From: Escherichia coli | Lineage (GTDB): Bacteria; Pseudomonadota; Gammaproteobacteria; Enterobacterales; Enterobacteriaceae | DNA length: 64,000 nucleotides | Assembly (NCBI RefSeq): GCF_003334765.1 | Contig: NZ_QOWT01000011.1 | Direction: 5' to 3' (one strand) | Shown here: positions 54,732 through 55,859 of the stretch, piece after piece | Layout of the letters: each line of letters begins with the position of its first letter | Position numbering within the stretch: position 1 is the stretch's first letter | The notes under the pieces: generated by a model | What the model was told of the DNA's origin: nothing | The model's input: the letters and a program-made list of their open reading frames with translations, nothing else | The model's database searches: none | Position numbers and translations under genes: made by a program

Positions 54732-55859
54732 TTAACGGCGTCTATAGCCTTCCTCTAGCACCGCCTGTGTTCGAACGAGTTCATCTGCGAGTCGTTTCTC
54801 ATCAGGTAGTTGCATCTTATATTCGCTTGCCAGAACGGTGTTAGGCAAACCTGCCAGAGCATAATGCGCTTCTCCGGCTCCTTTCTCTGCACAGAGAACC
54901 AGACCGATGGGCGGATTTTCATCCGGTAGCGTCCAGTGCTCTTTGGCGTAGTTGAGATACATATTCATCTGTCCGGCATCGCTATAGCTGAATTTGCCCA
55001 CTTTTAGATCGACGATTAGCAGGCAGCGTAAACGGCGGTGGAAAAACAGCAGATCGACACGAAACCAGTTGTCATCAATGCGTAACCTTCGCTGCCGACC
55101 AACAAAGGCAAAATCATCCCCAAGTTCCAGCATGAAATCCATCAGGTGGTTGATCAGCGCCTCCTCAAAATCGGATTCTGAATATTCATCTTTCAATTCC
55201 AGAAATTCGAGCACAAAGGGATCGCGTATCGCCTGTTGCGGAAGAATATGCGTCTCGGCAGGAGCGTGTTGTTGCAGCATGGCTGATTTGTCATGTGACA
55301 GTAGTGTCCGCTCATAAAACTGGGTCGCAATTTGCCGCTCTAGCTGGCGAACAGACCAGCCACAGCGGAGCGTCTCTTTTTCATAAAAGCTGCGGGCGTC
55401 AGCGTTTTTAACGGAAAGTAAACGGACGTAGGTGGACCTGGGCAAGGGGAAAGATTTGGCAGACAGCGTCTGCCAAATCTTTGCCGATGGGAATTCTGCA
55501 GACGGTGTCTGCGGAATTCCCAATGGTGTTAATTCGCCAGACATTGTCTGGCGAATTTCAACATGTTGAAAAAAGAGGTAAAAAAGCCTCATTTGGCGTA
55601 AGTTTTTTGCAGAGAACCCACGCTTATACCTTAGACATAAATCCTTTGATAGTCGCTTGATTAGCTGCGCACCATACGCAGCCCTGGCCTCGCCACCTTG
55701 TTCAAATTCGACAATTCGTCGGCCAATTTCCTGGTACGTCGCGGTCATTAACGCGTTAACGCTACGTACCGTTTCCGTCCGGGCGCTATCGACCAGATGA
55801 ATAATACCGTCGTGGATTTGCTGGTAGCCTGCTGTGGTTCCTTCTGAGAGCGATTCCAT
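54732..55859 (-). CDS. yhcG: DUF1016 N-terminal domain plus PD-(D/E)xK-type putative nuclease, uncharacterised
   Basis: 375 aa ORF with DUF1016-like N-terminus (...YGAQLIKRLSKDLCLRYKRGFSAKNLRQMRLFYLFF), then WSVRQLERQI...YERT and a C-terminal nuclease-like region (IVDLKVGKFSYSDAGQMNMYL). Confidence 0.85.
   Translation of the reverse strand: MESLSEGTTAGYQQIHDGIIHLVDSARTETVRSVNALMTATYQEIGRRIVEFEQGGEARAAYGAQLIKRLSKDLCLRYKRGFSAKNLRQMRLFYLFFQHVEIRQTMSGELTPLGIPQTPSAEFPSAKIWQTLSAKSFPLPRSTYVRLLSVKNADARSFYEKETLRCGWSVRQLERQIATQFYERTLLSHDKSAMLQQHAPAETHILPQQAIRDPFVLEFLELKDEYSESDFEEALINHLMDFMLELGDDFAFVGRQRRLRIDDNWFRVDLLFFHRRLRCLLIVDLKVGKFSYSDAGQMNMYLNYAKEHWTLPDENPPIGLVLCAEKGAGEAHYALAGLPNTVLASEYKMQLPDEKRLADELVRTQAVLEEGYRRR
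55451..55557. repeat. Three tandem near-perfect palindromes (CAGAC-N3-GTCTG core) embedded in-frame within yhcG
   Basis: aagatttggcagac-agc-gtctgccaaatctt (55451-55481); gggaattctgcagac-ggt-gtctgcggaattccc (55489-55521, one arm mismatch); aattcgccagac-att-gtctggcgaatt (55531-55557). Confidence 0.9.

Follow-up and report, generated by a model that had tools for sequence, protein, structure and literature searches.

Palindromic hairpins in the reading frame of Escherichia coli yhcG and at the same position in DUF1016 genes of distant phyla

The yhcG gene and its tandem hairpins

We studied yhcG, a gene carried by contig NZ_QOWT01000011.1 of Escherichia coli (RefSeq assembly GCF_003334765.1), and the palindromic hairpins that lie within its reading frame. 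The window, i.e., the whole stretch of DNA analyzed, had 64,000 nt; unless another locus is named, the positions given below and in Table 1 refer to it. According to the list of open reading frames (ORFs) and the sequence itself, yhcG is read from the minus strand, from ATG to TAA, and RefSeq E. coli genomes with identical DNA annotate it as yhcG, a PDDEXK nuclease domain-containing protein. Its neighbors are nanQ (also named yhcH) on one side and yhcF on the other. The GC profile gave 55-59% for the nan genes, ~48% for yhcG, 39-46% for the fimbrial genes and 55-57% for gltD. yhcG belongs to the accessory genome, some E. coli strains having the gene, some a truncated form and some none at all. 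Its protein is already known, with its function uncharacterized: it is the namesake of its own Pfam families, received a PD-(D/E)XK prediction in 2005 and is listed as a defense candidate (see below).

Three tandem hairpins are located inside yhcG with a period of 39 bp (13 codons), and a fourth lies 16 nt beyond the stop codon. The peptides encoded by the three-hairpin array are EIRQTMSGELTPL / GIPQTPSAEFPSA / KIWQTLSAKSFPL. The pattern CAGACnnnGTCTG occurred five times in the window, vs 0.05 expected. Folded as DNA, the hairpins gave -10.8 to -15.8 kcal/mol (z = -5.8 to -8.6), and the array folded as RNA gave -69.6 kcal/mol (z = -10.6). Each of the three copies in this one gene is self-complementary although their outer arms are not alike, and the arms also change compensatorily between E. 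coli alleles, e.g., CGCCAGAC/GTCTGGCG vs GTGCAGAC/GTCTGCAC.

The hairpins occupy a hypervariable linker that divides helices 8-96 of the DUF1016_N domain from helices 126-200 and that is predicted to be disordered: its residues 101-122 form the only segment of the structural model with a predicted local distance difference test score (pLDDT) below 50. In an alignment of 30 sequences (A1) the length of this linker varied from 0 to ~70 extra residues. The E. coli alleles, with lengths of 349, 370, 375 and 382 aa, are distinguished solely by how many hairpin units the linker contains, these being arranged in tandem with 36 or 39 nt each, and an allele with a 78-nt in-frame deletion of yhcG exists as well.

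The palindrome across the DUF1016 family

A first-pass annotation of this DNA had placed the reading frame at the junction of the nan operon and a fimbrial cluster, as the ORF list, the neighboring genes and the GC profile bear out, and had described the gene as carrying a palindromic insert. The palindromes are real, but they are not an insert, since they are found at the same codon position in DUF1016 genes of distant phyla. Among six distant plasmid-borne homologues with 29-62% identity (from Burkholderia, Segatella, Serratia, Salmonella IncHI2, Rhodococcus and Anabaena), five had the strongest palindrome of the gene at the same place, i.e., at nt 287-333 and immediately 5' of the conserved (L/I)xW(S/T/G)H codons, with arm sequences wholly different from one homologue to another; the sixth, that of Rhodococcus, presented an imperfect copy there.

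The wider comparison comprised 80 loci from reference genomes of many phyla, including Nanoarchaeota and Woesearchaeota, and 80 loci from viral or prophage contigs. Perfect linker palindromes with arms of at least 8 nt were present in 62 of the 81 full-length genes, vs a mean of 1.4 and a maximum of 6 when the linkers were codon-shuffled. A stem scoring at least 8 was found in 125 of 140 distinct linkers, and the other 15 showed degenerate copies. The palindrome lies in the disordered linker, immediately ahead of the conserved LSWSHY motif, and its density is 9.8 per kb there and 0.39 per kb over the remainder of the gene. Stems usually had 8-15 bp, with one to four or more copies per gene; in the first 80 genes one hairpin was counted in 51, two in 21, and three or four in 2, weaker extra hairpins being left out of these counts. 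The loop measured 1 nt in 91 hairpins and 3 nt in 50 (141 of 154 in total), and the hairpin center fell in the same codon phase in 146/154. The shortest linkers, of 17 aa, are essentially the hairpin alone.

Homologues bearing the hairpin span many bacterial phyla and archaea, with 30-66% protein identity, and those with the hairpin at the same position include genes of Burkholderia, Bacteroidota, cyanobacteria, actinobacteria, Nanoarchaeota and others. The peptides encoded by the palindromes are unrelated: QTLSA, SETLSR, SATLSR, YTLCS, GYALRS, VSLIRE and LPPLVAE. Judging from these comparisons, the yhcG palindromes are an ancient feature of DUF1016 genes, common to the family, rather than an E. 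coli insert. It is hardly credible that a repeat of the repetitive extragenic palindrome (REP) or miniature inverted-repeat transposable element (MITE) kind entered yhcG in the E. coli lineage, or that a peptide repeat happens to be encoded by palindromic DNA. The ~29 extra residues relative to the Pfam model and the tandem units do look like inserted repeats, but the same element holds the same codon position in distant phyla and in archaea, the hairpins of K-12-type genomes are confined to the nanQ-gltD locus and not dispersed, and completely different peptides are all palindrome-encoded, with wobble bases fixed by pairing. A dispersed repeat of the REP/bacterial interspersed mosaic element or MITE type was also rejected, as no E. 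coli genome has the hairpin in more than 6 places; in K-12-type genomes the count is 5, which matches the five copies at the nanQ-gltD locus, three of them intragenic.

The longest example seen was a perfect palindrome with 21-bp arms, TCCTGCCGAATTCGCTACACA-G-TGTGTAGCGAATTCGGCAGGA, in a DUF1016 gene of Kiritimatiellales (locus L072, gene nt 315-357). Many family proteins in databases are fragments that start at about query residue 130-150, just past the hairpin region; they probably reflect assembly or gene-calling breaks at the palindromic repeats, a point of caution for metagenomic surveys.

Covariation and the level of constraint

Covariation was analyzed in a gapless alignment (A3) of 106 centered 41-mers with a 12-bp stem, the consensus of which was nnnnnnnAATTnnnCAGACACTGTCTGnnnAATTnnnnnnG. 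Paired cells amounted to 91.2% vs 63.8% in column shuffles, and the covariation score was 0.673 vs 0.169 in the shuffled alignments, none of 500 shuffles reaching 0.673; the score fell to 0.13 or less once the partner was slid by 1-3 columns. Changes on both sides were found in 12/12 pairs (325 cells). The distal arms covary and the pairs beside the apex are conserved. Positions A9, C19, G23 and T33 were each at least 90% conserved, and the stem pairs A9-T33, 12 bp from the center, and C19-G23, proximal to the apex, were formed in 97 and 96 sequences, respectively. G23 is the third base of its codon, for which the encoded amino acid varies freely.

Pairs of the G-U type made up ~1% of the helix cells and were no commoner than other non-Watson-Crick combinations; mismatches inside the stems numbered 11 G:T, 26 A:C and 25 others, G:T being the rarest. 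The asymmetry between G:T and A:C (11 vs 26, p 0.02), a possible test of strand or RNA, was not relied on because synonymous CAG to CAA changes yield A:C mismatches. Selected RNA helices normally tolerate G-U pairs; their rarity here makes the constraint look DNA-like. That the outer arms differ and yet remain self-complementary points to intramolecular pairing, as a dimer sitting on duplex DNA would not require that. As read from the alignments, the third-codon positions and the peptide follow the palindrome, not the reverse, and the family palindrome bears what appears to be the mark of selection, at the DNA level, for intramolecular pairing.

The main rival to the explanation that we favor (see below) is an mRNA attenuator: the stem would slow ribosomes or alter mRNA processing, keeping a toxic nuclease low under any promoter or in any operon. 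We regard it as possible but doubtful. The RNA fold of the three-hairpin array is very stable, as given above; the element occupies the only part of the ORF that is free of protein constraint; its copies vary from one to four or more, as those of a tunable element would; and a separate 10-bp stem sequesters the start codon (see below), which suggests restrained expression. The scarcity of G-U, with fewer such cells than A:C and other mismatches, would be unusual for a selected RNA helix, although strict complementarity could be a by-product of DNA-level quasipalindrome correction. Furthermore, the loops of 1 or 3 nt are not stable tetraloops, the hairpins lack a U-tract and so are not terminators, they have no Rfam match, and the near invariance of the apex-proximal C-G and of the A-T pair 12 bp from the center goes beyond the needs of stability.

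Other roles at the nucleic acid level found no support. The Rfam search with the hairpins gave only chance-level microRNA matches (E at least 0.1). An intrinsic (Rho-independent) terminator was rejected, with 0/5 hairpins called terminator-like and none having a T-tract; a promoter function of the hairpins was not supported; and no conserved slippery site for a programmed frameshift was seen upstream of the hairpins in E. coli alleles and homologues.

A different account of the perfect Watson-Crick stems is that they are neutral: an ancestral inverted repeat would perpetuate itself as a quasipalindrome kept perfect by template-switch correction, and the rearrangements (see below) would be side effects of a fragile site. 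Such stems are what template switching would give, the linker is disordered and hypervariable in both length and sequence, and palindromes are known hotspots for slippage and deletion, a behavior that fits the copy-number variants and the breakpoints. We nevertheless consider this account improbable: a deletion-prone neutral element should be lost often, but stems were found in 125 of the 140 linkers, across phyla and in the same phase, even the minimal 17-aa linkers are still little else than hairpin, and specific base pairs are nearly invariant.

The start codon of yhcG lies in a perfect 10-bp inverted repeat, ATTCCATTAT / ATAATGGAAT, formed by 55853-55862 with 55890-55899 around a loop of 27 nt. 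In the minus-strand mRNA the 5' untranslated region (UTR) of yhcG pairs with the AUG and leaves the Shine-Dalgarno sequence in the loop. This stem was kept in 5/5 other E. coli alleles read and could be a translational restraint on yhcG. A divergent stationary-phase small RNA, G0-10703, was described as overlapping the yhcG 5' UTR by 128 bp (PMC7967276); its region corresponds to the yhcG-yhcF intergenic space, about 55860-56043 in the window.

Hairpin copies at the junctions of the nanQ-gltD locus

The locus presented two further hairpins outside yhcG. H4, located between the stop codons of yhcG and nanQ, is translated as FQRFRILQTLSGES in a read-through allele (P0021), and H5, found with the pattern CAGACnnnGTCTG, lies next to gltD and has the arms of internal hairpin 1. 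The low-GC segment that contains yhcG and the fimbrial genes extends between them. In genomes without yhcG (L177) the stop-to-stop interval between nanQ and gltD is 67 nt and holds one hairpin, AATTTAGTTGGATAGCTCGTTTTATAAATTCGCCAGACACTGTCTGGCGAATTCATTGTTACCTCGC, with the left flank as in H4 and the right flank as in H5. The K-12-type arrangement is nanQ-H4-(yhcG and fimbrial genes)-H5-gltD, the empty type is nanQ-hairpin-gltD, and O157-type strains have nanQ-H4-yhcG-gltD with no H5. A total of 5,426 complete E. coli genomes was surveyed: 947, including ST131, had the empty junction (at least 80% covered) and 1,232 had the K-12-type H5 junction. H5 and the empty-site hairpin consist of internal hairpin 1 arms plus ~10 nt that resemble the sequence 5' of hairpin 1. 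The likeness of H4, H5 and the empty-site hairpin to the internal hairpins shows that they are remnants of yhcG fragments joined at hairpins. The fimbrial gene yhcE is intact here, as a 183-aa ORF at 56757-57308, and is interrupted by the insertion sequence (IS) IS5 in the K-12 record; the DNA thus belongs to a strain of the K-12 type other than MG1655.

Internal hairpin 3 is the breakpoint of two E. coli rearrangements. The L173-type allele diverges in the 3' arm of hairpin 3, from which ~460 bp replaces everything up to the nanQ stop, thereby removing the 3' two-thirds of yhcG; it is a common allele, found in E. coli B derivatives among others and in 6/40 evenly spaced rows of matching genomes, roughly 15%. 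The replacement encodes an unrelated 101-aa ORF annotated as 'transposase' (WP_000639208; E. coli 13KWH46, NZ_CP019250, 1648-1953), for which neither Pfam nor NCBIfam gave a match. Hairpin 3 also contains the endpoint of an IS1-associated deletion. Hairpin copies lie at several independent structural-variant junctions in E. coli, and the hairpins are recombinogenic in nature.

yhcG follows gltD in Salmonella, Citrobacter and Pseudocitrobacter too, with the internal hairpin present, which suggests a long residence and repeated loss in E. coli; the Salmonella comparison was of one strain, and most of the close homologues with a name come from subsp. salamae, arizonae and diarizonae. That flanking hairpin copies might be general in the family was rejected, since they were limited to E. 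coli, a solitary copy in locus L038 and a paralogue in L082. The L038 hairpin (KILQTVSAKS, 710-724) is non-coding and lies 2.2 kb upstream of the DUF1016 gene, like the E. coli remnants; in L082 a second DUF1016 paralogue, with its own hairpin at 1124-1150, lies 1.8 kb upstream.

The hairpin could instead be an att-like site used in trans, i.e., a crossover for a recombinase (e.g., that of a neighboring integrase gene) or for a host system, by which cassettes would be gained or lost and gene halves exchanged. The empty E. coli site with one hairpin and the occupied site with two around a 7.1-kb low-GC segment, the replacement of the L173-type allele from hairpin 3 onward and the tyrosine integrases directly upstream in some loci would all suit such a site. 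Tyrosine recombinases have overlap regions of 6-8 bp and serine recombinases a 2-bp crossover, and the central spacers of 1 or 3 nt misfit both; besides, most loci have neither a nearby recombinase nor flanking copies, and the gene would be interrupted by integration at a site within its ORF. In close pairs the N-terminal part often shows far more divergence than the rest (54% vs 86% identity in L008/L169), but different evolutionary rates also explain this gap. We find the att-like site quite unlikely. Module shuffling at the hairpin was likewise rejected: identities tend to be lower in the N-terminal than in the C-terminal part, with a few strong outliers, a pattern inseparable from rate differences. 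As for integrons, attC sites are imperfect palindromes of 55-140 bp with R and L boxes and extrahelical bases, placed at the 3' end of a cassette near intI. The yhcG hairpins did not qualify as attC, being perfect palindromes of 25-33 bp that are mostly inside an ORF, with no integrase gene from nanT to gltD; the box motifs were not searched for.

Domains, fold and active site of YhcG

The first-pass annotation had also proposed a DUF1016-type N-terminal region and a C-terminal region like those of PD-(D/E)xK nucleases, and both were confirmed by profile searches, structure prediction and inspection of the active site. The two family hidden Markov models matched YhcG significantly and in N-to-C order, the second, "YhcG PDDEXK nuclease domain", with E 1.6e-56, in agreement with the precomputed Pfam domains of all close homologues. 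The DUF1016_N match spreads 166 residues over 137 model positions, which indicates an insertion. An AlphaFold2 model obtained from the 30-sequence alignment (mean pLDDT 80) consisted of helices N-terminally and of an alpha/beta domain with a restriction-endonuclease-like core C-terminally. Foldseek comparison of this model with the PDB placed NucS/EndoMS on top (E 6e-5), followed by Bax1 and by the nuclease domains of Can2 and Card1. The E-D-(D/E)xK catalytic motif that was predicted for the family (Kosinski et al. 2005, PMC1189080) is present in YhcG, where E245, D269, D284-L285-K286 and Q297 are all found and are conserved in 137-140 of 140 homologues. The yhcG product is composed of an all-helical DUF1016_N domain and a NucS/Hjc-like PD-(D/E)XK nuclease domain in which the E..D..DxK..Q set is intact.

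The relationship with NucS/EndoMS and the archaeal nucleases resembling Holliday-junction resolvases is restricted to ~120 alignable residues with 13-18% identity to YhcG. A two-domain architecture of the NucS type was rejected, since only ~119-126 residues of the C-domain align and the all-helical N-domain of YhcG is unrelated to that of NucS. Searches of the PDB by structure and by sequence gave no relative of the YhcG N-domain, a profile search of PDB sequences with YhcG gave nothing meaningful and did not recover NucS, and the NCBIfam search gave no family for YhcG.

Two residues set the protein of this window apart from its homologues. Codon 141 is Arg (AGG) here and Trp in 134/140 family members, and codon 43 is Gln here and Trp, Phe or Tyr in 138/140. 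Among E. coli alleles, O157 and others have Trp43 and Trp141, and the large cluster P0001 has Trp43 and Arg141.

Table 1 Features of the yhcG region and their coordinates in the window
Feature	Position	Strand	Description or basis
nanQ (yhcH)	54208..54672	+	neighbor of yhcG
H4 hairpin	54692..54716		between the stops of yhcG (16 nt away, on its 3' side) and nanQ (20 nt away); resembles internal hairpin 2
Low-GC segment	54717..61830		7.1 kb between H4 and H5, with yhcG and yhcF/E/D/A-type fimbrial genes; GC profile, empty-site sequence, population counts
yhcG coding sequence	54732..55859	-	375 aa + stop; ORF list, sequence, RefSeq annotation of identical DNA
YhcG_C PD-(D/E)XK nuclease domain, aa 208-360	54780..55238	-	Pfam PF06250
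Catalytic codons	E245 55125-55127; D269 55053-55055; D284 55008-55010; K286 55002-55004; Q297 54969-54971	-	
DUF1016_N domain, aa 19-184, all-helical	55308..55805	-	Pfam PF17761 (E 1.3e-36), AlphaFold2 model
Variant codons	codon 141 55437-55439; codon 43 55731-55733	-	comparison with 140 homologues
Hypervariable linker holding the hairpins, aa 97-140	55440..55571	-	alignment, model, allele lengths
Internal hairpin 3	55450..55482		AAAGATTTGGCAGAC-GCT-GTCTGCCAAATCTTT, encodes KIWQTLSAKSF; copy closest to the conserved Trp motif
Internal hairpin 2	55489..55521		sense GGGAATTCCGCAGAC-ACC-GTCTGCAGAATTCCC, one C:A mismatch, encodes GIPQTPSAEFP
Internal hairpin 1	55531..55557		sense AATTCGCCAGAC-AAT-GTCTGGCGAATT, encodes EIRQTMSGEL
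yhcF	56044..56760	-	neighbor of yhcG
H5 hairpin	61831..61855		ATTCGCCAGAC-ACA-GTCTGGCGAAT, 15 nt from the gltD stop, at the far fimbrial end

Family context and putative function

At E up to 1e-3, the YhcG/DUF1016 family (PF17761 plus PF06250; COG4804) was represented by 21,241 clusters of 50% identity. It corresponds to PDC-S02, a candidate single-gene defense family of PADLOC whose model PDLC04807 matched aa 9-370 of YhcG (E 2.8e-131), and at the protein level nothing distinguishes YhcG from this family. Homologues were found in type I and type III restriction-modification (RM) operons and in operons of the defense island system associated with restriction-modification (DISARM). They are often located between hsdM and hsdS, on the same strand and often overlapping them: of 139 loci, 25 had an HsdM-like gene as the immediate upstream neighbor and 23 an HsdS-like gene as the immediate downstream one. 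HsdR, type III res/mod, DISARM DrmD, RadC, HU and integrases are the other recurring neighbors. Enrichment of DUF1016 beside phase-variable RM genes has been reported (PMC9881135). As support for a defense role of PDC-S02, the RM and DISARM enrichment is circumstantial.

This gene order recalls that of PrrC in EcoprrI, where a nuclease gene likewise lies between hsd genes, on the same strand and often overlapping. PrrC is the anticodon nuclease of the EcoprrI type I RM operon, an ATP-binding cassette ATPase and tRNA nuclease; it has no similarity to YhcG, and E. coli yhcG, unlike prrC, stands alone, away from hsdRMS.

A role in defense or nucleic acid processing had been put forward by the first-pass annotation as plausible and unproven, a view with which the PDC-S02 match and the homologues in RM and DISARM operons agree. 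Its statement that no function was established needs qualification: the published evidence is indeed thin, but one study reported synthetic lethality between a yhcG deletion and hypomorphic alleles of dnaB, dnaN and parE, and assigned YhcG to a functional neighborhood with HsdMRS and McrBC (PMC2672614). We infer, at about even odds, that YhcG processes unusual or foreign DNA structures, either as an RM-accessory defense or in resolving replication intermediates.

The ToxI/ToxN system resembles yhcG in that tandem units of ~36-39 nt are linked to a nuclease gene. By analogy, a hairpin RNA cut from the yhcG mRNA might bind YhcG as a ToxI-like inhibitor or as a guide-like cofactor, and the 36- or 39-nt units of E. 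coli do recall ToxI (36 nt) and the periodicity of clustered regularly interspaced short palindromic repeats (CRISPR). We hold such an RNA partner to be very improbable. Unlike ToxI, the yhcG repeats are in-frame coding sequence inside the ORF and not a separate upstream array, most homologues have one copy (a single hairpin in 51/80 genes), the pairing is DNA-like with no tolerance of G-U, and the protein has a DNA-nuclease fold and not that of ToxN/AbiQ. A type III toxin-antitoxin system was rejected on similar grounds, i.e., the in-frame repeats, the PD-(D/E)XK fold and the lack of a toxin-antitoxin match in PADLOC.

A gene of the HU/IHF family recurs near DUF1016 genes of the Burkholderia type: in L006 it lies at 3702-3980 and overlaps the DUF1016 start codon, and similar clusters occur in L017, L019 and L046. 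HU prefers cruciform and bent DNA, a preference that may be relevant to the DUF1016 hairpin.

A possible role of the hairpin in cis for the encoded nuclease

The best single explanation, to which we assign a probability of roughly 40%, is that the palindrome acts in cis as a DNA hairpin or cruciform that would be bound, and possibly cut, by the encoded structure-specific nuclease acting as a dimer. Nowhere in the gene but in the linker is any sequence acceptable to the protein. A control or substrate site placed there, being intragenic, would accompany the gene in horizontal transfer, whichever operon receives it, and it could self-limit a potentially toxic enzyme. It would also make the locus prone to breakage and rejoining, which would explain why hairpin copy number varies and why junctions of insertions, deletions and replacements in E. 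coli coincide with hairpin copies. A hairpin handled by its own nuclease would account jointly for pairing of a DNA-like type, for conserved pairs that keep a fixed distance from the apex, as expected if a protein touched them, and for the structural resemblance to nucleases that read DNA shape; it would also agree with the recombinogenic behavior and with the genetic interaction reported between yhcG and replication factors.

Known systems offer partial parallels. REP sequences with their REP-associated tyrosine transposases (RAYT), the ends recognized by TnpA of IS200/IS605, and attC sites share with the yhcG element a short covarying DNA hairpin with conserved apex and base, linked to a DNA-cutting enzyme, and the yhcG hairpin copies are also found at insertion and deletion junctions. 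The enzymes of those systems are nucleases of the HUH (His-hydrophobe-His) class or tyrosine recombinases, and their hairpins are extragenic, imperfect and usually multi-copy; the yhcG hairpin, in contrast, is a perfect palindrome inside the ORF of its own enzyme and at one locus.

Several points weigh against a hairpin recognized by YhcG. Binding or cleavage of the hairpin by YhcG is purely what we infer. In vivo, cruciform extrusion is poor for stems of 8-15 bp, and formation of the hairpin may thus be limited to single-stranded DNA. Alignment A3 was built from detected hairpins, an ascertainment that inflates the percentage paired, although the detection rate itself, 89% vs about 2% in the null, is free of that bias; and the scarcity of G-U could come from template-switch correction of quasipalindromes, leaving an mRNA role possible. 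Flanking copies were seen neither in Salmonella, Citrobacter and Pseudocitrobacter nor in 78/80 other loci; they are specific to E. coli, so rearrangement cannot alone explain the conservation across the family. Within E. coli, 2/4 IS or replacement events fall outside the hairpins (IS3 at nt 234, IS1 at the 5' end). The K-12-type YhcG may be impaired, a hypomorph, because Q43 and R141 sit at nearly invariant aromatic positions. Finally, our literature search, which covered open-access papers and bioRxiv, retrieved a single phage test of PDC-S02, in which a homologue from a cold seep gave no protection against T4, T5 or T7 (bioRxiv 10.1101/2024.09.26.614923), and found no biochemical report for the family.

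More tentatively, since we think it rather unlikely as a whole, the DUF1016/YhcG gene may be a self-contained module whose nuclease recognizes the hairpin or cruciform in its own reading frame as a control or sensor site and as a site of breakage and rejoining. Sensing could occur, e.g., by extrusion when invading DNA perturbs supercoiling or replication, and breakage and rejoining would drive the gain and loss of cassettes and the exchange of domains.

The same literature search, made in full text, gave no mention of the conserved intragenic palindrome of yhcG/DUF1016 genes, and this finding appears to be unreported; what concerns the protein was already known. The hairpins explain the variable nanQ-gltD hotspot, where yhcG is present, absent, truncated or expanded with a fimbrial island and where hairpin copies stand at the junctions. 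The YhcG family is among the most abundant unvalidated candidate defense genes, and the phase-locked, covarying palindrome offers a concrete and cheap experimental handle on its recognition and control, for which the K-12-type allele (Q43, R141) may be a poor model. It would be a rare case of strong selection at the nucleic acid level overriding the protein code across phyla. If the self-contained module is true, these genes would represent a new class of defense or mobile gene bearing its own cis-element, one that counts over 20,000 protein clusters from bacteria and archaea.

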